Assembly (NCBI GenBank): GCA_045578285.1
Contig: JAZNJY010000004.1
Span: 9,500 to 73,499, forward strand
DNA: 64,000 nucleotides
DNA from: Candidatus Nanosyncoccus sp.
GTDB taxonomy: Bacteria > Patescibacteriota > Saccharimonadia > Saccharimonadales > Saccharimonadaceae
Direction: 5' to 3'
Below the pieces are notes generated by a model. It saw only the letters and a program-made list of their open reading frames with translations. It was not told the origin of the DNA and did no database searches. Position 1 is the first letter of the stretch, and each line of letters starts with the position of its first letter. This document shows, piece by piece, positions 1,357 through 11,481 of this stretch. The translations under genes were made by a program, and so were the position numbers.

Positions 1357-1430
1357 TTAATTAAATTACATCACTTCGTGATATAATTATGAGAAAGGTT
1401 GGGAGTACTTTAAAAAGGAGAGTGATTATT

Positions 1431-2219
1431 TTGAATATAAGAGAAAAGTGTGAGCGAATATGGGAGGGGTATAAGCTTTATGCTAGTACTGCTTATGTGC
1501 CGCGTAGGGGATTTGAATTGGTTGGTTTAACTGAGACGATTGACAATGCGTCGGTACCGGTGGACGAGATTTTCGAGTGCCGTGGTGAGTCGGGTTTGGA
1601 ACATCAAGCGAAGACAACGTGGCTCGCGTTTGCGTTTAGCGAAAATTTTCCGGATTTCTTTGACTCGGAGTTTATCCGTCAGCCATCTAAAGCCAGAAAC
1701 TATTATTTGTTTTATTTGGTGTCGGCCGTTGTGCTTAACCATGACGTGGGGGAAGTTTTGACTGGTGATATTCCAGACAATGGCAACCCTATGCACTACA
1801 CTAAAGATGCGACGGAACGTGAAGTTTTTGGAAATACGGTTAACCAGGCATTTGGCTACAATTGTTATCCAATGGAGGCAATGTTTAAGCAGTTTCAGGA
1901 TAAAAGAACGCATCTTGGCAAAGCAATGTATGCATTGGACAAGATAGAAGCGGTACTTACTTTGCTGTTCTTGGAATCATACGGACATTGTGGTGTGCAG
2001 GGTGATATTGAGAAGACGGAACAGGACGCATATTATATGAATGTGACACGTAGCGACAATCCTACGGATTGTTGGGCTGCGCATGTTAAGGAACTAATTA
2101 TGGGTTATCCAGAGGAAATTATAGAACCAACATTTGAACTTTTGCGGGTGGCCGTGCTGGATGTGCGTGGAGAGATGTTTGAATGGTGGGATCGTGTTTC
2201 GCAGGGAAAGGATATTTGA
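1431..2219 (+). CDS. HD-domain phosphohydrolase, YfbR-like 5'-deoxynucleotidase family
   Basis: H...(LEHQ), LNHDVGEVLTGDIPDNG (HD..E..GD), ALDKIEAV (D-K) motif series. The ORF opens at ATG 1389, but that ATG sits 2 nt after a TGaTATAAT box (1379-1387). TTG 1431, preceded by AAAGGAG, is the likelier start. Confidence 0.65.
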   Translation: MNIREKCERIWEGYKLYASTAYVPRRGFELVGLTETIDNASVPVDEIFECRGESGLEHQAKTTWLAFAFSENFPDFFDSEFIRQPSKARNYYLFYLVSAVVLNHDVGEVLTGDIPDNGNPMHYTKDATEREVFGNTVNQAFGYNCYPMEAMFKQFQDKRTHLGKAMYALDKIEAVLTLLFLESYGHCGVQGDIEKTEQDAYYMNVTRSDNPTDCWAAHVKELIMGYPEEIIEPTFELLRVAVLDVRGEMFEWWDRVSQGKDI

Positions 2220-2266: not shown

Positions 2267-2522
2267 ATGAGCATATTTTAGGAAATAAAAGTGGTGGGAC
2301 ACAGAAGCTCGAAGAGCTCGATAAAGTTTGGGCTGAAATCTAACGAATGTTAATAGCCCACGAGGATAATATGGATTAGGTTTTGAGGCCTCATACTTAA
2401 ATGTATTGAGTGGAGAAAAATCTAGGGCATGTAGGATGTCTCTGTGCTACTATGGACATCATGCTATAATTATGATATAATATAGTTATAGTACATTAAT
2501 ATGACCGAAAGGGGGAAATTCT

Positions 2523-3707
2523 ATGGTTAAACTGTTAAAACCCGTCATCGAACGCAGGTTAGAAAAGGCTGATTCCGGCATAGGAACGCGGAAAAGGGCA
2601 GCTGAAGATATCTGCTGTTTCCTTGAAGCGAATCCAATAAACGCCTATGATATGCCACTTGAACGTGAACGTTATTATAGCGCCTGCGAGAATCTGCTTG
2701 GGAATAGAGATTCTGAAAGAATCCTGTTATATCTCCCACTAAGATTTCTTGAGGATGCTCCGGAAACGTTCAAGAAAACATACCGCGATGCATGGTACAG
2801 GCTCCTCAACGTAAGAGATGTGCGTGAAAACTTTCATCTCGGCGATTGCTTCGAGCTTGATGCTAGACCACGCGACGGACTTGAGCGCGTAGCAAAATGT
2901 ATTCATCTCACGCCGTGGTTGCTCAAATATGGGTATATTGATGAGCGACAAATTCTGAGAATCCTGAGGGAAAATAGCGAAGATGAAGTATTACTACAAA
3001 GCTTCAACGACACCTGGGAATACATTCGTACGAATAAAATCCTGGGGAGTGAAGATTTGTACCAGCTTACTTCAAAAACAGCTCATTTACCCGAAAGAGA
3101 GAAACCGAAACCGCTCTATGTTTCAAAAAAGCGACTAGAATGGCTCGATGAGCGCAACAAACCAGCAGAGCTTTTAACGCCCTCAGCTAGACTCGAGGGA
3201 CCATTCTCGGATAATATTCCAATAATTGAGGCGCGGCTCGAAGAAATCGCTGCAAAGCTGAATCCGTCGGAAATTGTTCTAGTGGGAGGCTCTCAGCTCA
3301 AAGGATACGGAACCAAAAATTCCGACCTAGACGTATGGAGTTATGATCAACTTTTGCATGATATTGCGTTTAATCCTGGAAATCCTCACGTCATTCATAT
3401 CTGCTTTAATACGATATGGTTGGGCGGACAAGATGTTACTATGGAAGATCTGGAACGTCTTTCTGACCTAATTTCCGGCAATTACACGGAATGGGCAAAG
3501 ATAGCCAATAAGCTTTTAAAACGTCGAGCGATTGAGCGTTTAGAAAGCGACCTGCTCCAATATAGGCTGTTACACAAAGGATTCTCCAGGTTTACTGGTA
3601 TAGACGAGTTTTATATTCCGCCGGAGATGGATGGTGATTGTCCGTTCTATGTCGATGAATACCGTCGAATCGCAACCATGCTTTATGCAAAATACGTTTG
3701 GCTTTAA
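2523..3707 (+). CDS. Pol-beta-superfamily nucleotidyltransferase-domain protein with ~230-aa unknown helical N-terminal region
   Basis: LVGGSQLKGYGTKNSDLDVW matches the G[SG]-x9-12-DxD minimal NTase signature; RBS AAAGGGGG 7 nt upstream; TGcTATAAT promoter at ~2460. Confidence 0.6.
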   Translation: MVKLLKPVIERRLEKADSGIGTRKRAAEDICCFLEANPINAYDMPLERERYYSACENLLGNRDSERILLYLPLRFLEDAPETFKKTYRDAWYRLLNVRDVRENFHLGDCFELDARPRDGLERVAKCIHLTPWLLKYGYIDERQILRILRENSEDEVLLQSFNDTWEYIRTNKILGSEDLYQLTSKTAHLPEREKPKPLYVSKKRLEWLDERNKPAELLTPSARLEGPFSDNIPIIEARLEEIAAKLNPSEIVLVGGSQLKGYGTKNSDLDVWSYDQLLHDIAFNPGNPHVIHICFNTIWLGGQDVTMEDLERLSDLISGNYTEWAKIANKLLKRRAIERLESDLLQYRLLHKGFSRFTGIDEFYIPPEMDGDCPFYVDEYRRIATMLYAKYVWL

Positions 3708-3714
3708 GGTTATG

Positions 3715-3746
3715 AAAAAGGCCCCCGAAAAGGGGGCCTAATTTTA
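3715..3746. terminator. Bidirectional rho-independent terminator between convergent genes
   Basis: AGGCCCCC-gaaaa-GGGGGCCT perfect 8-bp GC stem flanked by an A-run and a T-rich tract. Confidence 0.85.
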
Positions 3747-3764: not shown

Positions 3765-4958
3765 TTACAGGACACGCTTGCCGGTCAGACCGGTCATGCC
3801 GGTGGCATCACCGCCGCCCAACTCATTCCAGTTGATCTGAGTGCCCAGCTGCCACAACGCGACGAAGTAATTAACCTCTACATCGGAAGTAACCGTGTCG
3901 TGCTTGGCAAAGGCCAGGACGTACTTGACCAGATTCTGCTCCAGACGGATGTAGTTACTGGAAACGCTGGCGCCGATCTTCTTCAGCATCATCTCGCGGT
4001 TCTTCACGCCGACCATGGACGGCAGACGCGGATCCTCGAGCGTATTGCGGATGGTATTGGCGTCATAAGCCATAGCGGCCGCAACCTGAACGCCAGTACC
4101 ACGGAAAACGCGGTTAATGGAATCGACCAGCGTGTCGCCGGCGTCATGCAACTGAGTCGTGTCGGGCGGAGTAATCATACTCATACCCGCAGCGCCACCA
4201 CTGAAACCGCCGCCGATAGCCGCGATCAGCATAGAGGGGTCAGAGAAGCTTGCGCGCCAGGTCTGATACCAGCTGTCCAGCGTACGATAGCTTTCGGCGA
4301 TTGCCGGCCACAGAGTGTCGCGGATACGACTCAGGAACTCCTTACGGCGTCCTTCCGTGATGAAAGTGCCGTCCAGACCATCAATCGCGGCGAAGATGTC
4401 GCCATAGGCACGACGCGTCAGAGACTTACGCAGAGCGTAGAAGGTCGGGTCGACCTGTTCTTCGGTCTCATCAGCATACTTCTCCATTGCCTTGGAGAGA
4501 GCGTCAGGAACATTGTAGAGTCCAGCACGGTCAGCCAGAGCCGCACGAATAGCGGCGATGTAGGACGAATCGTCCACCTTCAGGATACCGCCGGTCTTCA
4601 GGGCATTCAGCCAGGATTCGTCGGTCGGGATGGACGGAAGCAGAGCCTCGAACTGGCTCTGAATCGCACGCGTTTCCGCGGCGGCCACAGCCGGAGCGGT
4701 GGCAGGCTTTGCAGCAGACTTCAACTCCGCTACGAGCTTGCGAGCCTTTGCCAGCTTCATGCCGGCGCCGGTCAGATCAGTAACTTCCAGAGAAGTCAGG
4801 TCATCGATGTCTTCAACGCCGAGATCATTCACGACTTTGTCGATCGTAGTTTCATCGGCGCCGTATTCGGCGAGCTTGGTGCGAACTTCGCTTGCGGCAG
4901 GAGCAGCAGCAGGTTCGGTTTCAGCCTCGGGAACAACTTTCTTGATTTCTTCACTCAT
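3765..4958 (-). CDS. Hypothetical protein, Ala/acidic-rich, ~60% GC (last gene of the 4-gene operon); no family recognised
   Basis: 397-aa ORF with RBS AAAGGAGG 8 nt upstream, 14 nt after the upstream gene's stop; N-terminal helix-hairpin-like segment LTSLEVTDLTGAGMKLAKARKLV. Confidence 0.7.
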   Translation of the reverse strand: MSEEIKKVVPEAETEPAAAPAASEVRTKLAEYGADETTIDKVVNDLGVEDIDDLTSLEVTDLTGAGMKLAKARKLVAELKSAAKPATAPAVAAAETRAIQSQFEALLPSIPTDESWLNALKTGGILKVDDSSYIAAIRAALADRAGLYNVPDALSKAMEKYADETEEQVDPTFYALRKSLTRRAYGDIFAAIDGLDGTFITEGRRKEFLSRIRDTLWPAIAESYRTLDSWYQTWRASFSDPSMLIAAIGGGFSGGAAGMSMITPPDTTQLHDAGDTLVDSINRVFRGTGVQVAAAMAYDANTIRNTLEDPRLPSMVGVKNREMMLKKIGASVSSNYIRLEQNLVKYVLAFAKHDTVTSDVEVNYFVALWQLGTQINWNELGGGDATGMTGLTGKRVL

Positions 4959-4972
4959 GGGTTTTTCCTCCT

Positions 4973-6292
4973 TTAATTTTTATTCGAGCTGACTTTGTCT
5001 AGCTCGGTTGGTCCAATTGAGAGTAATTTAAGCGGAACATTTAAGAACCCTTCGAGAGTATTCCCGACGAATTCGAAAAGCTCCTGCTTCAGAATGGGTT
5101 TCTTGATGGAATATTTAATTGTGTTAGGCTCAGCCTTCTTAAGAAAATCGACATACGATTCATTAGCCACTGGTGCATTTTTGTAATCAACGCAAAGTGG
5201 CCAAACACGATCGCACGCCAAAATCTGGTCAAACCAGGTAAGGCAAAGCCCGTCGAACGGAGTATCGCTACTCGCGTCAAGAGCATATCGCAAAAGATTT
5301 AAATCAAGTGCTCCGGCACGGACGATGCCTTGCCAGCGATTTTCATCTTTGTGACTGCCCGGGAGCATCCGTGCCGTGAACTCCGGATCATAAGTCGGCA
5401 TTGGACCGGCTCCATGACGAATTTCATAGGCACGATGAACGGCGTAATTAATTATTTCGCCGTCATACCCAGCTGCTCTCAACATTTCCATAGTGAACTT
5501 CGGGAGAGTCCTAATCGCACTTACGTGGGGCTTTAACCCTGTTTCTGCGTCGGTCAGAACTCCATGTGAACATTCGACGACGGCTACGCCATCGCCTTTT
5601 AGAACCTCGCTCAAACTTTCTAAACGAAGCTTCTTGCCTACATCTTCGAATAAATCGAGACAATACGGCAGGAATCCGTCGTCATAAAGCAAATCAAGAT
5701 TCTCGGCGATTAGCTCGGCGTCGCCAGGTAAACCATCTTCTCGAGAGATTCTGGCATACCTTTCTCTGTAATAATCGAGCTGTTTTTGGAGTTTAATGCG
5801 GATAATTTCGCGATCCTTAAGCTCGAAAGCCCGAATCGTTGCCGCTTTTCCGAGTGTTTTGAACATACGGTAGGCTTGCCCGACACCGGTCCCAATCGTA
5901 CCACGAGGATTGCTCCCCCGCAGAAGTTCTTCAAGCTGAGAAGAAATCCGATGAAAAGGTGTGGCCGATATGCAAGCCGGATCGCAGGACAAAAGCGTAA
6001 ACGGATCGTAGATCCCGAGTCGTTTTAAGGAATCCGACTCGTTACTGAGACCAACTGGCGAAATCACCATTTGCTCAGATAGAAAAGTTGGTACACCCTC
6101 AAACGTTCCGCAACCCCATTGTGAGAAATTGAAACTTTCTCCGTAGGAGGTGCGCACGCCGTGAGAGCCTTGTGCGCCACCGCGCTTGATAATGACTGAG
6201 GCGTCAAAATTGCGCGAGAGCGCGTGTACTACGCCGCCCTTGCCTCCATCACCTGGACCGAGATCAGTAACGACATAAATTTTCTCAAACAT
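4973..6292 (-). CDS. Divergent adenylosuccinate-synthetase (PurA)-fold protein, probably not a canonical AdSS
   Basis: Retains GPGDGGKGG (cf. GDEGKGK), GGAQGSHG (cf. GGHNAGHT), GTIGTGVGQAY (cf. GTTGRGIGPAY), RHGAGPMPT (cf. RVGAGPFPT) and SIGPTE (cf. STGPDR). EFGATTGRRRR is replaced by HKDENRWQGIVR, and TKLD by TWFD. Confidence 0.75.
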   Translation of the reverse strand: MFEKIYVVTDLGPGDGGKGGVVHALSRNFDASVIIKRGGAQGSHGVRTSYGESFNFSQWGCGTFEGVPTFLSEQMVISPVGLSNESDSLKRLGIYDPFTLLSCDPACISATPFHRISSQLEELLRGSNPRGTIGTGVGQAYRMFKTLGKAATIRAFELKDREIIRIKLQKQLDYYRERYARISREDGLPGDAELIAENLDLLYDDGFLPYCLDLFEDVGKKLRLESLSEVLKGDGVAVVECSHGVLTDAETGLKPHVSAIRTLPKFTMEMLRAAGYDGEIINYAVHRAYEIRHGAGPMPTYDPEFTARMLPGSHKDENRWQGIVRAGALDLNLLRYALDASSDTPFDGLCLTWFDQILACDRVWPLCVDYKNAPVANESYVDFLKKAEPNTIKYSIKKPILKQELFEFVGNTLEGFLNVPLKLLSIGPTELDKVSSNKN

Positions 6293-6342
6293 AACGCACC
6301 TCCTTAAAAGTCTTGTAAAACCAAATTGTTAACAGATCTTGA

Positions 6343-7446
6343 TTACAGATACTCAATACGATCCGGAGATTCCACGGACTCTTCATCGCCAGAGGCTTCT
6401 CCCGGCTGAATCGGCCAGGTATCACCCTTGTTTGCGAAGATGTCGCCCGCTTTGGGAACCGGATGTGGCAACGCATGACGAAGTTTCGCCTGCGCGCCGA
6501 TATCGATGTTGGAAAGCTGCTTGATCAGGTCAGCATCGCCGAACTTGCCGAGATGCTCTTTCAGACCAACCACTTCAATCGTCCCCTCGGTCAATCCGAT
6601 GATAGCGGAAATGATCGCCGGCAATTGCCGGGTGGAATCGATGACGATAACGGACTTTTCGCCGCAAAGATCACGCCACAGCTCGAGCGTATCGCCGTAA
6701 CTGTGATCGCGCATTACCAAAACGAATTGATGCGTTTTCTGCTTCAGCTCATTTACCATAGCCTTAACGGACGGAAGTTCACGGTGTATTCCTTTCAGCT
6801 CATTCTTAAAGATCTCGCTTCCGAAAATACGCCGAATCTCTTCTTCGCGCAAATGATTATGATAGGGTTCATCCGTAACGATGAAGTGATAGCCCTTAAG
6901 GCCGATACGATTGGTGTAAGCGTCGGTCAAATAAGCGCGCGCGAACATGGCATACTGAGGATCTTCCCCGTGATTACCACATCCACCGCGCTGAGGCGCC
7001 ATTTCTTTGAGATAGTTCACAATCTTGGGTGCTTCCATCTCAAACTGAGGGCGGCACATGACGAAGTCATCGTCGCAATCGCCGAAAATGCCGAGACAAA
7101 GCTGCGGGTCATATCCGGGCAAAACCTTGGCTACGGCGTCGTATAACTCAGGGAGAACATTCATCTCCGTGTCGACTTCGCCGCCCATAGAGCCGGTGGT
7201 GTCGCAACTGACCTCGATGTCCATCGGACAGCCGAGCGTAGCAATCCACTTCTTCTGATGGGGGTTCAGGCGAATCTTGGAGAAACGAATCGGCCCAATA
7301 GCGGGATCGACAATTTCGCTGAGATGTCCGGTCCGCCGAGCGCGTTCTTCCGCCTGCCTGGTTACGTTGGTGCTCTGAGTCACGCCATAATCACGACGTG
7401 CCTGCCGGTAGCTATCTACCGAAAAAGTTTGGTGTCCCATCTTCAA
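6343..7446 (-). CDS. von Willebrand factor A (vWA) domain protein with MIDAS-like motif
   Basis: DIEVSCDTTGSMGGEV (DxTxS MIDAS variant) after an ~80-aa N-terminal region; start overlaps the upstream gene's stop by 4 nt. Confidence 0.65.
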   Translation of the reverse strand: MKMGHQTFSVDSYRQARRDYGVTQSTNVTRQAEERARRTGHLSEIVDPAIGPIRFSKIRLNPHQKKWIATLGCPMDIEVSCDTTGSMGGEVDTEMNVLPELYDAVAKVLPGYDPQLCLGIFGDCDDDFVMCRPQFEMEAPKIVNYLKEMAPQRGGCGNHGEDPQYAMFARAYLTDAYTNRIGLKGYHFIVTDEPYHNHLREEEIRRIFGSEIFKNELKGIHRELPSVKAMVNELKQKTHQFVLVMRDHSYGDTLELWRDLCGEKSVIVIDSTRQLPAIISAIIGLTEGTIEVVGLKEHLGKFGDADLIKQLSNIDIGAQAKLRHALPHPVPKAGDIFANKGDTWPIQPGEASGDEESVESPDRIEYL

Positions 7447-8249
7447 TCCTCCTTAATAGTTTTCCAAATGATGGTATCGCGATCGCGATAAGTAAAAGGA
7501 TGATACTGAATCCCCCAACACTTTTTTACGAGTGTATAAAGGTCTCCATGAGCTTCCTCAAACGAATTGCGACCGAACTCCGAGAAATCCTTGAGCAGTT
7601 CAAGATATTCCTGCTCGGCGGGATCATCTCCAACAACAACCCAATCGAGAATAAACTTCGAAATAGCCTTGACGAAGTCGTTGGCCACCACATCAGCTAT
7701 ATCTCCAGAGAAGTTGTAGTAAATTAAACGGTGCTTTTCCGGCCCAATAAGATAATCATCGGGCGAGAAGATTGGGTATCTGGCAATAGGATTGTCCCCG
7801 GAAGCCGCTAACAGCTCAAAAAAGCCATAGAACTTCAGGAAACGCCCAAGAATCCAGATACTGGTACGGGTGTCGATTTCGGTTTTAGCGTGAAGCTTCG
7901 TCAAAGGGATTAACTTGCTGAGATCAATATCTGGTGTCGTGAAGACGTTAATACGTCGATCTCCCTGGGTAGATTCCATGAACGAAGACAATAGATTCGC
8001 AAATAGCCAGTCGTAGTGGGAGTTACTTCCGCCTTGATCCGCTTCAAACTTCGCCACCTGTTCTTCGAAAGAGCGCATAATATTGAATTTGCCGGCCTCC
8101 TCAGCGAGGATGTCGCCATCTTCAAATGTCTTCGCTACCTTCAAGATTACCAGCTGCTCGTCATCTATCGTGCCAAGGTAGATACGGAACTTCGGGGCTT
8201 CGCCAATGCGAGACCCCACTTCGATATTCCTGACTCTCAATCTAATCAC
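7443..8249 (-). CDS. Hypothetical protein, first gene of operon; faint protein-kinase-like-fold resemblance
   Basis: GTG start after GGAAAGGAA; LVILKVAK, FSPDDYLIG and YNFSGD loosely recall the beta3-Lys, catalytic-loop and DFG positions; not a confident assignment. Confidence 0.55.
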   Translation of the reverse strand: MIRLRVRNIEVGSRIGEAPKFRIYLGTIDDEQLVILKVAKTFEDGDILAEEAGKFNIMRSFEEQVAKFEADQGGSNSHYDWLFANLLSSFMESTQGDRRINVFTTPDIDLSKLIPLTKLHAKTEIDTRTSIWILGRFLKFYGFFELLAASGDNPIARYPIFSPDDYLIGPEKHRLIYYNFSGDIADVVANDFVKAISKFILDWVVVGDDPAEQEYLELLKDFSEFGRNSFEEAHGDLYTLVKKCWGIQYHPFTYRDRDTIIWKTIKED

Positions 8250-8312
8250 TTCCTTTCCATAGTAGAATCAAGACATTAAATAACTATGCCCCGCGTACGG
8301 TGCATTGTTCAT

Positions 8313-8341
8313 ATTTTAGCATATCAGAGCGAAAAAGTCAA
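8313..8341 (-). promoter_or_regulatory. Sigma70-type promoter of the 4-gene operon
   Basis: On the minus strand: TTGACT - 17 nt - TGcTAAAAT, ~60 nt upstream of the GTG start. Confidence 0.6.
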
Positions 8342-8547: not shown

Positions 8548-8623
8548 TGGTGGAGTATGCGGGACTTAAACCCGCGACCTCCGCAATGCGAATGCGGCGC
8601 TCTATCAGCTGAGCTAATACCCC
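8548..8623 (-). tRNA. tRNA-Ala (anticodon CGC)
   Basis: Manual cloverleaf: GGGGTAT acceptor with G3:U70, anticodon loop TTCGCAT, encoded CCA, 76 nt. Confidence 0.9.
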
Positions 8624-8645: not shown

Positions 8646-10028
8646 TTAGATGCCTGGAACAGGGAATTTTTTGGTGAGAGATTCTACTTCGTTCCTGATG
8701 GCGGCGAAATCTTCGGCGTAAGTTTCTAGATTATCTTCTGTCTCGGCTTTGACACAAATATCGGCAACTTGCTTCATGAAACCGGCAAGCTCTTTCATTT
8801 CTTTGATACCAAGGCCGCGAGTAGTGATGGCTGGAGTGCCAAGACGTACGCCGGATGGGCGGAAAGCGCCACCTTTATCGGTTGGAAGAGCATTGGCGTT
8901 TAAGGTGAGTCCGACCATATCGAGGGCTTTTTCATAAATTTTGCCGTCAATACCGAAAGATTTCTGCATGTCGACGAGGATTAAGTGGTTTTCGGTGCCA
9001 CCACCTTGCAAAATAAACCCACGATTTTTAAGCTCGTCGGCTAGGGTTTTGGCGTTTTCGACAATTTTTGTAGCGTAATCTTTGAACTCTGGTTTTAACG
9101 CTTCACCGAAAGCAACTGCTTTTGCCGCAATGATATGTTCTAGTGGGCCACCCTGGGTACCAGGAAAGACTGCGCGGTCGATCAAAATAGGGATGTTTTT
9201 GAGGGTTTTTTCTGGTTTTTTGAGTGGGGAAGCAACGTTGCCCTTCGATAAGATGAGGCCGCCACGTGGGCCACGCAGTGTTTTATGTGTAGTAGTGGTC
9301 ATGACGTCGAAGCCAAAATCGAGTGGATTTGGATGAATCCCGCCAGCAATGAGTCCAGCTACGTGTGCCATGTCTGCCATTAGGAGGATTTCGTGGCCGG
9401 CTTTTTTGGCGGTTTTGTCACGAATTTCTACCACGCGTTTAAAATCTGGGATTTTCATAAAAGCGGAGTAGCCAATTAGGATAATCTTTGGCGAGTGCTC
9501 CATGGCGAGGCGTTCAAGCTCGTCGTAGTCAATGTCGCCATCTTTAGTGACGCCATAGCCGATAAAATTATAGATGTGGGCGCTAAGCGTGACTTTGGCG
9601 CCATGGGTGAGGTGCCCGCCAGCCGGAAGTGACATGCCAAGCACGGTATCACCTGGTTCTAGCCAAGCAAAATACACTGCATTGTTGGCTTGGGCGCCAG
9701 AGTGAGGTTGCACATTAGCGTGATCGGCGTGGAACAATCGGCAGGCACGGTCGATACACAAGCGTTCAATGCGGTCGATATTAGTTTGTCCACCGTAATA
9801 GCGATAATTTGGTAAAATTTCTTCGGCGATCTTGTCTTCGCTCCATTCTTTGTCGCCGTAACCGGTGCCTTTGAAATTTGGATAGCCTTCAGAATATTTG
9901 TTGGTTAAAATTGAGCCCATCGCTTCTAAAACTTCAGCGGAGACGTAGTTTTCGCTAGGAATAAGTTCTAAGCCTTTTCTTTGGCGGTTTTTTTCTTGAT
10001 TTATCAAATCAAATACGATATCTTTCAT
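8646..10028 (-). CDS. glyA: Serine hydroxymethyltransferase
   Basis: LELIPSENYVS...LTNKYSEGYP...TTTTHKTLRGPRGG (PLP-Lys region) typical of SHMT. Confidence 0.95.
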   Translation of the reverse strand: MKDIVFDLINQEKNRQRKGLELIPSENYVSAEVLEAMGSILTNKYSEGYPNFKGTGYGDKEWSEDKIAEEILPNYRYYGGQTNIDRIERLCIDRACRLFHADHANVQPHSGAQANNAVYFAWLEPGDTVLGMSLPAGGHLTHGAKVTLSAHIYNFIGYGVTKDGDIDYDELERLAMEHSPKIILIGYSAFMKIPDFKRVVEIRDKTAKKAGHEILLMADMAHVAGLIAGGIHPNPLDFGFDVMTTTTHKTLRGPRGGLILSKGNVASPLKKPEKTLKNIPILIDRAVFPGTQGGPLEHIIAAKAVAFGEALKPEFKDYATKIVENAKTLADELKNRGFILQGGGTENHLILVDMQKSFGIDGKIYEKALDMVGLTLNANALPTDKGGAFRPSGVRLGTPAITTRGLGIKEMKELAGFMKQVADICVKAETEDNLETYAEDFAAIRNEVESLTKKFPVPGI

Positions 10029-10037
10029 GAAATCTCC

Positions 10038-10514
10038 TTATTTAAGTGAATATTTAGAAATGACATAGGCTAGATCATTTTCGGAACCTTTCTTTATGAT
10101 TTGCTTAACGTATTTGGATTTGTCGAAGGCTGGGAAAAAAGTGTCGGCGCTCGTGGTAGAGTTGATTTCGGTAAGATAGAGGTTTTTGGCATATGGAAGA
10201 GCAAGTTTATAAATGGCGCCGCCGCCGATGATGAAAAATTCTTCGTCTGAGTTTTGGTGTTTTTTGAGAAAATCGATTAAATTAGGAATAATTTTGACGG
10301 AGCTTGGGAGATTCTTGGGATTTCGTGAAGCGACGTAATTTTTGCGACCGGGGAGTGGATTGCCGATGCTGTCGAAAGTGGCTCTGCCCATAATGACTGG
10401 ATGTCCTAGAGTGGTATTTTTGAAAAATTTCATGTCTTCTTTGATACTGAAAACAAGCTTGCCGTTTAGCCCGAGTTCGTTGTTTTTACCGATGGCTGCA
10501 ATGATGTTGAACAT
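10038..10514 (-). CDS. folA: Dihydrofolate reductase
   Basis: MFNIIAAIGKNNELG...MGRATFDSIG.PLPGR.N...IIGGGAIY. The ORF-track 248-aa form is an upstream extension overlapping thyA; ATG at 10514 lies 1 nt after the thyA stop. Confidence 0.9.
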   Translation of the reverse strand: MFNIIAAIGKNNELGLNGKLVFSIKEDMKFFKNTTLGHPVIMGRATFDSIGNPLPGRKNYVASRNPKNLPSSVKIIPNLIDFLKKHQNSDEEFFIIGGGAIYKLALPYAKNLYLTEINSTTSADTFFPAFDKSKYVKQIIKKGSENDLAYVISKYSLK

Positions 10515-10515
10515 T

Positions 10516-11481
10516 TTACTCCGTAACTGGCATACTGATTGTGCCGAGATTTTTATAATTCTTAAGTTTGATATCTTTGAGTTCGCGCGAGCTGTCGAAA
10601 GCGTGAAAATCTTTAATTTCGGGATTAATCCAGAGGGTCGGGGCTTTAGGAAGGGTGCCGTTTTTGATGGCTTCGTCGTAGCGAGCGATTTGCTCCTTGA
10701 TGCCGTCGATTTGGTTTTCGTAGATATGGGCATCATTTGTGATAAAAGTGAATTGACCAGGCTTTGCGCCGATGATGTGAGCAATTAGGTAGCAAAGGGT
10801 GGCGTATTGCACGATATTAAATGGTAGTCCTAGCGGAACATCAGATGAACGAGAGGTTACGAGCAGATTTAGGCGGCCATCGATGAGGTTCCATTGCGAG
10901 TTCCAGACGCAAGATGGTAAGGCAGCAGTGGGGAGCCATTCGTTTTGCCAGAGACTCATGACCATGCGGCGGTTGCCAGGGCTTTGTTTTAAGGTCTCGA
11001 TGAGGTTGTCAATAAGATGATAGCGATTGACAATCCAGCCATAGGCAGTGCCGATGGTGTGAGCGAAGTCGGTCTTTGGCTCGTCTGGATGTGATTTAGC
11101 GAAGATTTCGTTGATGTTTCGCCCCTGATAAGTGCCGTCTTCGGCGATTTCCCATTCGTCCCAGATTTTGATGCCACGCTCTTTAAGCCAACGGACATCG
11201 TTTGAAGCTTGTTGATAAATCCAAAGCATTTCGAGCGTGGCGGTCTTGAAGGCGACTTTTTTTGAGGTGAGGATGGGGAACTCTTCTTCGAGATTGAATT
11301 GTAAAACCTGGTGAGGTAGACGGATGGTTTTAGCCTCTGATGCCCCCTGAGCGGTATGATCTGGAATAGCCAAGGATGCAGCATCGGTGCGATGATCGGA
11401 CTTTTGATAATTTATGATTTTTTCACCATTTTTAAGGATGCGACGACAGAGGTCGATATACTGATCGTCAAATTTGCTCAT
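10516..11481 (-). CDS. thyA: Thymidylate synthase (ThyA type)
   Basis: LPSCVW.SQW...L.L..TSRS.DVPLGLPFNI.QYA.L...DAHIY.NQ motifs. Confidence 0.95.
   Translation of the reverse strand: MSKFDDQYIDLCRRILKNGEKIINYQKSDHRTDAASLAIPDHTAQGASEAKTIRLPHQVLQFNLEEEFPILTSKKVAFKTATLEMLWIYQQASNDVRWLKERGIKIWDEWEIAEDGTYQGRNINEIFAKSHPDEPKTDFAHTIGTAYGWIVNRYHLIDNLIETLKQSPGNRRMVMSLWQNEWLPTAALPSCVWNSQWNLIDGRLNLLVTSRSSDVPLGLPFNIVQYATLCYLIAHIIGAKPGQFTFITNDAHIYENQIDGIKEQIARYDEAIKNGTLPKAPTLWINPEIKDFHAFDSSRELKDIKLKNYKNLGTISMPVTE

Follow-up and report, generated by a model that had tools for sequence, protein, structure and literature searches.

What would an enzyme with the fold of adenylosuccinate synthetase (PurA) do once its binding loop for L-aspartate has been replaced, and why would it be encoded beside a von Willebrand factor A (vWA) protein and a kinase-like protein? 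This question is raised by a minus-strand operon in a 64,000-nucleotide stretch of contig JAZNJY010000004.1 from Candidatus Nanosyncoccus sp., a member of the Saccharibacteria of a type sampled from ruminants or the gut (the whole stretch is referred to here as the window). The operon consists of four genes, G1 to G4, of which G3 encodes the PurA-like enzyme, G2 the vWA protein with a predicted metal ion-dependent adhesion site (MIDAS), and G1 the kinase-like protein. An earlier, sequence-only reading of this DNA treated it as a four-gene unit; the comparison of related loci instead defines a five-gene cassette that includes the convergent gene G5. As judged from sequence, G3 is best regarded as a PurA-family ligase with a new specificity, placed in a new multi-protein context, and the folds of all of the components are already known. 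In keeping with the sequence-only reading, no described system that couples these proteins was found in the literature searched or among the PADLOC defense models.

The PurA-fold enzyme G3

The fold of G3 is assigned through Pfam family PF00709, which it matches with 107 bits (cut-off 27; E = 1.3e-30), and through the motifs GDGGKGG, GSHG, GTIGTGVGQAY, RHGAGPMPT and SIGPTE, which were noted earlier and are confirmed as retained by alignment to Escherichia coli PurA. The sequence-only reading also considered the enzyme unlikely to make adenylosuccinate, and this view is strengthened by the profile searches. G3 falls far below the purA equivalog cut-offs of NCBIfam NF002223 and TIGR00184 (78.7 against 402 bits and 62.6 against 395.6 bits, respectively), shares 24% identity with E. 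coli PurA, and has lost the aspartate loop. Its best PHROG match is PHROG 1211 (PurZ; 2.5e-35).

The residues of G3 were compared through alignments to E. coli PurA, to cellular and phage relatives and to one bona fide PurZ, rather than on a structure. The family shares with PurA the P-loop GDxGKG, the equivalents of Asp13, Lys16 and His41 (phosphoryl transfer), the GxGP motif, the guanine-binding Asp333 and the C-terminal SxGP, and G3 is probably a divergent PurA-fold ligase dependent on guanosine triphosphate (GTP). By contrast, the L-aspartate loop GATTGRRRRTG of PurA is replaced by N-RWQG-IVRAG in the window protein, with N-x-W-Q-G-x-x-R-x-G as the motif common to all phage and cellular members compared. 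Of the loop residues T300, T301, R303 and R305, just the R305 equivalent is kept, and R303 is gone in every member. Of the PurA residues in contact with inosine monophosphate (IMP), Val273 has become His across the family (RHGxGP) and N38 has become Gln; the position of T129 holds Ile or varies, that of T239 holds Ser or Thr, that of Q224 holds His in the window protein and Gln in phage members, and R143 is not conserved. The sequence-only reading had grouped the altered loop with Q224H and K331W (TKLD to TWFD) as changed substrate motifs. All three are indeed present, but the latter two are peculiar to the Nanosyncoccus branch, Gln224 being retained in the phage members. The changes that define the family, as far as the alignments go, are the WQG loop and V273H.

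PurZ is likewise a phage-borne PurA-fold enzyme of altered specificity, from which G3 was expected to differ in its aspartate site. The alignment agrees: in the PurZ of an Acinetobacter phage, encoded beside MazZ and DatZ, Ser takes the place of Asp13 (GSTGKG), RVA is found, and the aspartate-site elements TTVTKL..TRR are kept, whereas G3 has GDGGKG with Asp13 intact, RHG and RWQG. G3 was not accompanied by MazZ, DatZ or a DNA polymerase in the window, phage I3 or those IMG/VR loci that were inspected. By these comparisons, G3 is neither PurA nor PurZ; to our knowledge, PurA-fold enzymes are known for two reactions only, those of PurA and of PurZ.

The PF00709 match and the name "adenylosuccinate synthetase", under which GenBank lists the relatives of G3, would fit an ordinary housekeeping adenylosuccinate synthetase with unrelated neighbors. 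This explanation is hardly credible and is effectively refuted by the sequence, given the equivalog scores and low identity described above, the loss of the aspartate loop and of R303 in every family member, and the invariable linkage of G3 to a vWA partner, which is foreign to PurA. In addition, a search for PurB homologues found none in the 64-kb window or among the loci fetched. The conclusion that G3 is not an ordinary adenylosuccinate synthetase is thus well supported at the level of sequence.

The five-gene cassette and the partners of G3

Related loci, designated here by L numbers, were gathered in successive sets. The first comprised 24 related Saccharibacteria loci; a single-sequence query of genome contigs reached only close Nanosyncoccus relatives, and a metagenome scan seeded with G4 gave 69 more loci (GC content 0.30 to 0.66). 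In tblastn searches with the window proteins, G1-G2-G3-G4 are colinear in 24/24 Saccharibacteria loci, and G5 adjoins G4 wherever the contig extends past G4, except in L005 and L007. The orientation of G5 is convergent with G4 in most of these loci and co-directional in L002-L004. The five genes recur in every G4-seeded metagenomic locus of sufficient contig span, and linkage of G5 to G1-G4 is seen in about 50 loci. When neighboring open reading frames (ORFs) from 21 diverse loci were clustered, the G1-G5 families alone were common to more than four loci. The order G4-G1-G2-G3 is an alternative architecture, found in L098, L099, L109-L111, L124, L128 and phage L052. The sequence-only reading had named co-occurrence of the four genes in other genomes as a point on which it could fail; cassette genes co-occur in well over 100 loci.

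The surroundings of the cassette are variable. It is flanked by rpsI and tRNA-Ala in the window, by secE-nusG-rplK in L008, by relaxase/MobC genes in L005 and L007, and by a phage-like region with RtcB, a CCA-adding enzyme, RlaP and DUF2828 in L002-L004. Because the flanks differ among loci, the locus is regarded as a self-contained, horizontally mobile five-gene cassette, the core of which is the G2-G3 pair.

Window G2 has no significant match to Pfam VWA (1/21 homologues matched VWA_4, at E = 0.1), and its fold is accordingly taken from an AlphaFold2 model; searches of PDB sequences and profiles with G1 and G2 also returned nothing. The model, built on a 75-sequence alignment, has a predicted local distance difference test (pLDDT) score of 78.5 and a predicted template modeling score of 0.82. 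Foldseek aligns it to integrin beta-I and vWF-A1 structures in the PDB (E down to 1e-6, probability 1.0) and also to viral VWFA proteins. Within the D-x-T-G-S motif of the MIDAS, D82, T84 and S86 are invariant and G85 nearly so, and E161 and D192-E193 are likewise invariant; the window protein carries DTTGSM and an acidic C-terminal tail. The earlier assignment of G2 as a vWA protein with a DTTGSM site is thus backed by the predicted model, which supports a vWA fold with a putative MIDAS. Its N-terminal Met-Gly sits on a flexible tail of low pLDDT. Between a Saccharimonadaceae chromosome and Mycobacterium phage I3, G2 is 70% identical, compared with 42% for G3 and 39% for G1, and by this sequence comparison G2 is the most constrained and slowest-evolving member.

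Several peculiarities of G2 genes were also observed. In some mycobacteriophage homologues (P0243, 595 aa; BFVD A0A3G3M5V4, phage Sauce) a Hint/intein separates "RKGY" from "IFIGDE", right before the strand of the MIDAS Asp ("GDE"). In L005 and L007, G2 is seemingly split or frameshifted near its 5' end (6850-7950; two overlapping tblastn pieces with an in-frame stop), which may reflect a pseudogene or a sequencing error. The G2-G3 spacer of L062 (11057-11145), L064 (11051-11139) and L065 (10985-11086) is 90-100 nt long and holds a long, perfect, GC-rich hairpin. The hairpins differ in sequence among the three loci and have no Rfam match; they could act as an attenuator or as a device that sets stoichiometry.

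G1 aligns over its full length with gp270 of Mycobacterium phage I3, which passes the Pfam Pkinase cut-off (35.6 against 31.7 bits), and it matches phrog_3043 "kinase" at 4.8e-5; window G1 itself has no Pfam match. The kinase-like character proposed earlier is supported by this homology, but not as that of a conventional kinase. Invariant positions of the family include K37 (the beta3 Lys), E51 (the alphaC Glu), W132, R136, H173 and G226. The HRD Asp is absent across the entire family, where Ala, Ser or a variable residue is found, and the DFG Asp is Asn in window G1 and its Nanosyncoccus-type relatives and Asp in most J-domain forms. Since the catalytic Asp is missing throughout, G1 is likely a pseudokinase or an atypical enzyme. 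Outside the Nanosyncoccus type, most homologues begin with a J-domain that has an HPD motif; G1 of the Nanosyncoccus type and of phage L052 has no J-domain. A second, diverged G1 paralogue lies shortly downstream of the cassette in L024 (13833-14558; 37% identity) and L077 (16261-17088).

The remaining two proteins are unequally understood. G4 contains an N-terminal (HhH)2 domain at about residues 20-85, followed by an orphan all-alpha region of ~300 aa. Its family profile matches the C-terminal domain of RNA polymerase alpha and the N-terminal domain of Rad51 (E = 7e-4). No Pfam or PHROG family was matched by G4, and 31 homologues gave just a weak SAM/HhH signal. The family is nonetheless large, with 313 clusters at 50% identity in an exhaustive search, and G4 ranks as the most conserved protein within the cassette; identity to G4 is 75-97% across most Nanosyncoccus-type loci and about 50% in L005-L007. 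The notion that G4 is a divergent ADP-ribosylglycohydrolase, also an all-alpha protein, was rejected: too few acidic residues are invariant, N282 and G317 being the only invariant positions. G5 carries the motif GGSQLKGYGTKNSDLDV, fitting G-S-x(9-13)-D-x-D, and its homologues pass the Pfam cut-off of Polbeta or NTP_transf_2 (30.7 against 26.9 and 31.9 against 21); the window protein itself gives a weak MTPAP-like match only. On this motif and these profiles, G5 is classed as a nucleotidyltransferase of the Pol-beta superfamily.

Coordinates within the window are collected in Table 1. The close packing of the four minus-strand genes described by the sequence-only reading holds for the ORFs, for their spacing (50 nt between G2 and G3, 14 nt between G3 and G4), and for the ribosome-binding sites, which are of the AAGGAGG type 5' of G2, G3 and G4 and read GGAAAGGAAG for G1. 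Its 4-nt overlap between G1 and G2 does not hold. The TTG start at 7446 lies 1 nt past the Shine-Dalgarno sequence, whereas the ATG at 7440 lies 7 nt past it and gives G2 the N-terminus Met-Gly, which is invariant in 75/75 family members. G2 therefore probably starts at the ATG, and a 2-nt gap after the G1 stop replaces the overlap.

The common promoter and the strong bidirectional terminator proposed earlier were both recovered by scanning. The putative operon promoter agrees with the consensus at 10/12 positions and has an extended -10 TG, and the promoter-like site of G5 agrees at 11/12. The predicted terminator hairpin combines an 8-bp stem, in which 7 pairs are G-C, with T-runs on either strand, and the tRNA-Ala(CGC) flank is present as described. 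No riboswitch was detected by Rfam searches that covered the operon region and nine related loci. GC content is 0.46 in G1, 0.53 in G2, 0.48 in G3 and 0.57 in G4, compared with 0.43 for the whole window, so that the unusual composition remarked upon earlier is real. A recent foreign origin does not follow: because a gradient with G4 on top recurs in nearly all related loci, whatever the GC content of the host, the raised GC is a property of the module and no proof of recent import here.

Table 1. Positions of the cassette genes and associated signals in the window
Feature	Position	Strand	Remarks
G1	7443-8249	-	268 aa; GTG start; from ORF list
G2	6343-7440	-	Revised ATG start at 7440 (probable); ORF finder gave TTG at 7446
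G3	4973-6292	-	439 aa; from ORF list
G4	3765-4958	-	397 aa; from ORF list
G5	2523-3707	+	394 aa; Pol-beta-superfamily nucleotidyltransferase (assigned by motif and profiles)
Putative sigma-70-type promoter of the G1-G4 operon	8313-8341	-	TTGACT, 17 nt, TG-n-TAAAAT; consensus match alone
Promoter-like site 5' of G5	2453-2481	+	TGGACA, 17 nt, TATAAT, extended TG; consensus match alone
Predicted bidirectional intrinsic-terminator hairpin	3719-3739	both	AGGCCCCC-GAAAA-GGGGGCCT; serves convergent G4 and G5
tRNA-Ala(CGC)	8548-8623	-	

Other genes lie close by. A gene at 1389-2219 (+), between rpsI and G5, encodes an HD-domain protein (HD_3 at 3.3e-6) with a weak match to YfbR-like 5'-deoxynucleotidases; its membership in the cassette was rejected, as the only other copy, in L020, is distant from the module. 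Beyond the tRNA gene, three ORFs at 8646-11481 (-) resemble glyA (SHMT), folA (DHFR) and thyA when their translations are inspected by eye, and would make a thymidylate-cycle cluster adjoining tRNA-Ala. Among the related loci, L002-L004 (ENA contigs of 30-47 kb) place the cassette amid small phage-like genes, in a run of Metallophos, RlaP, CCA-adding enzyme or RtcB, and a DUF2828/TROVE-like protein that has an RNA-repair flavor. L011/L026 (IMGVR_UViG_3300028454_000294, 29,967 bp) is called viral by IMG/VR, and its cassette proteins are 83-97% identical to those of the window; it represents either misclassified chromosomal DNA of Saccharibacteria or a prophage-like region.

Distribution and the link to NrtR

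A scan of IMG/VR with the G2 alignment yielded 35 loci, mostly on phage contigs of 100-190 kb with GC contents from 0.25 to 0.66. G2 is followed by G3 in 35/35, with two opposite-strand ORFs between them in L050, and a G1 homologue is detected directly upstream of G2 in 8/35. A tblastn search of the phage collection with G1, G4 and G5 found no match. Phage L052 does have a G4 homologue (26% identical), and the order there is G4 and a 383-aa gene, a bona fide Ser/Thr protein kinase (4535-6271; Pkinase 6e-26), and then the G1-G2-G3 triad. The 383-aa gene, which lies between G4 and the kinase, was considered as a candidate G5 and rejected because it is not homologous. The genes gp270 (J-domain kinase-like), gp271 (G2) and gp273 (G3) keep the G1-G2-G3 order in phage I3 as well as in about 200 further mycobacteriophages of cluster C1; gp273 of phage I3 is 30% identical to window G3. 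The gp018-gp019 genes of Rhizobium phage TM30 are likewise a G2-G3 pair.

Cellular copies are found in other Saccharibacteria (L062, L064), in L065 and in an Acidimicrobiia genome (L063), and plasmid copies in Rhodococcus, Tsukamurella, Agrobacterium, Variovorax and Acetobacter. The gene order of phage I3 is shared by the Acidimicrobiia copy and by the Rhodococcus and Agrobacterium plasmids. Because G2 of a Saccharimonadaceae chromosome is 70% identical to that of phage I3, sequence comparison indicates that the module has been exchanged between Saccharibacteria and actinophages. Saccharibacteria live as epibionts on Actinobacteria, which fits such an exchange.

Many of the cellular relatives connect the module to the metabolism of nicotinamide adenine dinucleotide (NAD+). 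The regulatory gene nrtR adjoins it in 10 loci (L062, L064, L065, L099, L102, L109, L110, L111, L114, L141). In L062, L064 and L065 the triad stands tail-to-tail with nrtR (NUDIX plus NrtR winged helix), and the neighborhoods of L062 and L065 also contain pncA, pncB, nadD, nadE and NUDIX/APH genes, with SIR2 and ADP-ribosylglycohydrolase genes beside the module in L065. Six of the 10 (L099, L102, L109, L110, L111, L114) are loci recovered independently through G4, in which tblastn located nrtR directly beside the module; nrtR is divergent from G4 in L099, L109 and L111 and upstream in L102 and L110, and L114 is of the five-gene type. On an Agrobacterium vitis plasmid (L141), nrtR is divergent from a triad of J-domain G1, G2 and G3. 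The NrtR_WHD domain is confirmed by Pfam in L099, L114 and L141 and listed in the gene tables for L062, L064 and L065. Furthermore, L125 and L126 have nadE and pncB upstream of G1, and on Rhodococcus opacus pR1CP1 a NUDIX gene follows G3 within the operon. In total, at least 12 cellular loci have the module beside NrtR/NUDIX genes or with GT-N7-AC operators.

The operators themselves are equally informative. NrtR operators are 21-bp palindromes with a GT-N7-AC core, and adenosine diphosphate ribose (ADP-ribose) is the effector that releases NrtR from DNA (Rodionov et al. 2008, PMC2330246). A 21-bp palindrome, TTAGTGT-N7-ACACTAA, whose core agrees with this published signature (PMC2330246), immediately precedes the module in 10 loci (L062, L064, L065, L099, L102, L104, L109, L110, L111, L128), often as 2-4 tandem sites in the last six of these. 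The 19-bp core TAGTGT-N7-ACACTA is perfect in L062 and L064, and the full 21 bp are perfect in L064 and L099. The same palindrome occurs upstream of pncA/pncB and nadE/nadD. The counts in L062 (5) and L065 (7) were reached by 0/100 dinucleotide shuffles, and across the 1.77 Mb of fetched loci nearly all palindromes with up to 2 mismatches fall within regulatory regions belonging to these loci, apart from single sites in L092 and L113. In Rhodococcus, a perfect TTTTAGT-N7-ACTAAAA palindrome stands 12 nt before G1. From these sites and gene neighborhoods, we infer that the module belongs to an ADP-ribose-responsive NAD regulon in many lineages.

Two further sites were seen. The palindrome in L113, ATAGCGTAATTTGAACACTAA (1345-1365; 2 mismatches), lies between G3 and G4 of a five-gene-type locus. 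The divergent region between nrtR and G1 in L141 (5739-5859) contains TTAGAC-N9-GTCTAA and GACTTAG-N13-CTAAGTC, which share the TTAG arms, have a different core, and may be a lineage-specific NrtR operator.

Function of the module

The explanation preferred here, although held at somewhat less than even confidence, is that the proteins form a GTP-dependent nucleotide ligase complex with an acceptor other than aspartate, tied to NAD+/ADP-ribose turnover. At the expense of GTP, G3 would O-phosphorylate its nucleotide substrate (a 6-oxopurine nucleotide or related compound), and a nucleophile other than aspartate would then displace the phosphate on this intermediate. G2, as the obligate partner of G3, would present the acceptor via its Mg2+ site or, alternatively, would itself be the acceptor through its invariant free N-terminal glycine. 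G1 would serve as a kinase-fold regulator or scaffold of G2-G3 that binds nucleotide and is impaired in catalysis, and its J-domain, in most lineages, would recruit Hsp70. In the form found in the Candidate Phyla Radiation, G4 would add a binding subunit, for nucleic acid or protein, and G5 a nucleotidyl-transfer step. Accumulation of ADP-ribose, a sign of ongoing NAD+ consumption, would switch the module on. Because the relatives adjoin NrtR and have NrtR-type operators in common with pncA/pncB and nadD/nadE, a role in salvaging or repairing nucleotides, connected with NAD+/ADP-ribose, is suggested, and large phages would carry such a module to sustain the supply of nucleotides or NAD+ in the infected cell. 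A more specific formulation is possible, if on balance doubtful: a novel system in which a GTP-driven PurA-fold ligase, in an obligate complex with a MIDAS-vWA protein, either tags the N-terminal glycine of G2 with a nucleotide or, needing neither aspartate nor PurB, converts breakdown products such as ADP-ribose or IMP back into NAD+ or adenine nucleotides, being induced by ADP-ribose through NrtR in bacteria and used by large phages to withstand immunity that depletes NAD+ or nucleotides.

A number of observations weigh against the ligase complex proposed above. Several IMP contacts of G3 differ from those of PurA (N38Q, T129 variable, R303 lost, R143 not conserved), and its first substrate may therefore not be IMP. 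The window cassette has no NrtR-type operator, no nrtR lies within the 64 kb, and the promoter is of a plain sigma-70 type; the NAD link is therefore transferred from relatives, and among five-gene-type loci it depends on L114 (NrtR) and L125/L126 (nadE and pncB). No NUDIX or NAD genes were found near the phage copies, where a strict NUDIX-box search was also negative. The G4 model has a pLDDT of 43.8 and is confident for residues 20-82 alone. Why a ligase should need a vWA protein and a pseudokinase is left mechanistically unexplained. Finally, although G2 and G3 form one 590-aa ORF in L048 (7728-9497, on a 175-kb IMG/VR phage contig), this single case may be either a natural fusion or an artefact of assembly or frameshift.

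The closest competing explanation is a narrower form of the preferred one, in which NAD+ or adenine nucleotides are regenerated by small-molecule chemistry. G3 with GTP would activate ADP-ribose or a deaminated adenine nucleotide (IMP, a hypoxanthine dinucleotide) and join it to nicotinamide or, with ammonia as the donor, would rebuild NAD+ or adenosine monophosphate (AMP) in one step without PurB, so that phages could counter immunity that depletes NAD+ or adenosine triphosphate, as NARP1 and NARP2 do. It would account for the NrtR regulon and the NAD-salvage neighborhood, for the core in many large phages and for the missing PurB, and the conserved Trp and His of the remodeled pocket could bind an aromatic nucleophile. 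PurA chemistry, however, targets a ring carbonyl and not an anomeric hydroxyl, and we know of no PurA-fold enzyme for such a reaction. The obligate vWA partner, the pseudokinase, G4 and G5 are left unexplained, no other NAD genes lie near the phage loci, and the genomes with both module and NrtR already encode the full PncA-PncB-NadD-NadE route. Thus, even though phages are reported to rebuild NAD+ from ADP-ribose and nicotinamide (bioRxiv 10.1101/2024.02.11.579819; PMC12774641), this explanation is unlikely, if far from negligible. Alternatively, the activated nucleotide could be coupled to a protein amine, most likely the alpha-amino group of the G2 N-terminal glycine, giving an N6-(peptidyl)-AMP-type adduct that acts as a signal or switch and is handled by G1 and Hsp70. 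The canonical PurA nucleophile is itself an alpha-amino group. Met-Gly begins 75/75 G2 sequences, on a flexible tail of the most conserved member; the order is always G2 then G3, so that even the single ORF of L048 leaves the G2 N-terminus free, and vWA domains are peptide-binding modules (PMC9503650). Protein ligation of this kind is decidedly unlikely nevertheless, as the chemistry is without precedent, the invariant glycine could merely reflect folding or partner docking, and the NrtR link is not explained by protein ligation alone.

Less probable again is the modification or repair of nucleic acid bases, whereby O6 of guanine or hypoxanthine in DNA, RNA or a precursor would be activated and an amine installed, with G4 and G5 acting on the polymer, analogous to phage thymidine hypermodification or Z-genome synthesis. 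The (HhH)2 domain of G4 and the Pol-beta nucleotidyltransferase G5 would suit this role, as would the RtcB, CCA-adding enzyme, RlaP and DUF2828 context of L002-L004 and, in phage I3, a polynucleotide kinase encoded two genes upstream; PurZ already shows that a PurA-fold enzyme can serve in the modification of phage DNA. Most phage versions, though, lack G4 and G5, no MazZ, DatZ or DNA polymerase is linked, chromosomal copies occur in housekeeping contexts, and co-regulation with NrtR and NAD salvage points to metabolism. The sequence-only reading had raised defense as one of two possible roles, beside host interaction; this would make the locus an anti-phage or abortive-infection module generating a signal or derivatizing nucleotides under a vWA-kinase sensor. 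The variable location and mobile-element association (including relaxase/MobC in L005 and L007) would fit, vWA and kinase domains recur in conflict systems, and NrtR-type Nudix transcription factors also control predicted conflict systems (PMC9503650). Yet PADLOC-DB 2.0 gave no match at E <= 0.1 for G1-G5 or the HD-domain neighbor, hundreds of lytic phage genomes encode the core, the proteins are strongly conserved and not fast-evolving, the kinase-fold protein is without its catalytic Asp, and no effector (nuclease, pore, NADase) is recognizable. With relatives lying in an NrtR/NAD-salvage regulon, the defense reading finds no support and is less probable still than base modification.

The proposed ligase complex resembles several known systems in part. 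The TerY-P triad, said to have been described by Anantharaman, Iyer and Aravind in 2012, reportedly combines a vWA protein with a Ser/Thr kinase and a PP2C phosphatase, and shares with the present module a vWA/MIDAS protein beside a kinase-fold protein in a small mobile operon. Here, however, PP2C is lacking, the kinase has no catalytic Asp, the third partner is a PurA-fold enzyme, and most G1 proteins have a J-domain. Operons centered on an ADP-ribosylglycohydrolase (ARG), regulated by Nudix (NrtR-like) or WYL proteins and containing vWA "peptide-binding chaperones", are predicted to reverse viral ADP-ribosylation (PMC9503650). They are similar in the ADP-ribose-sensing Nudix-winged-helix regulator and the vWA component, and L065 has ARG and SIR2 beside the module. 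They feature ARG and phosphatases, with no PurA-fold enzyme or J-domain pseudokinase, whereas the module here is usually without an ARG gene. NARP1 (Adps and Namat) and NARP2 are reported to be phage-carried as well and linked to NAD+ breakdown products, a link suggested here by NrtR, but use PRPS-like and NAMPT-like folds in contrast to the PurA-fold, vWA and kinase-fold proteins of this module; none of the NARP families (PRPS-like Adps, NAMPT-like Namat, NAMPT, NMNAT) was found among the cassette proteins. Lastly, the MoxR(AAA+)-vWA pairs (CbbQO, NorQD, BchID, CobST, and a jumbo-phage pair; PMC7824862) provide a parallel for a MIDAS-vWA protein obligatorily paired with an adjacent P-loop NTPase. 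In the present case the NTPase is of the PurA type, with intact catalytic acid and base, and not an AAA+ remodeler, and no MoxR gene is present.

If the assignment of G3 is correct, it would add a third large subfamily to the PurA fold, a new specificity class and possibly a new modification of nucleotides or proteins. About 200 sequenced mycobacteriophages of cluster C1, genetically tractable on Mycobacterium smegmatis, carry the core, so that its function could be tested directly; many uncultivated phages of 100-190 kb have it too. Predicted control by NrtR would tie the module to the biology of NAD+ and ADP-ribose, which is central to the conflict of phages with bacteria. Saccharibacteria, for their part, are believed to lack purine synthesis, and the label "adenylosuccinate synthetase" that the gene currently bears misleads metabolic reconstructions of these epibionts.

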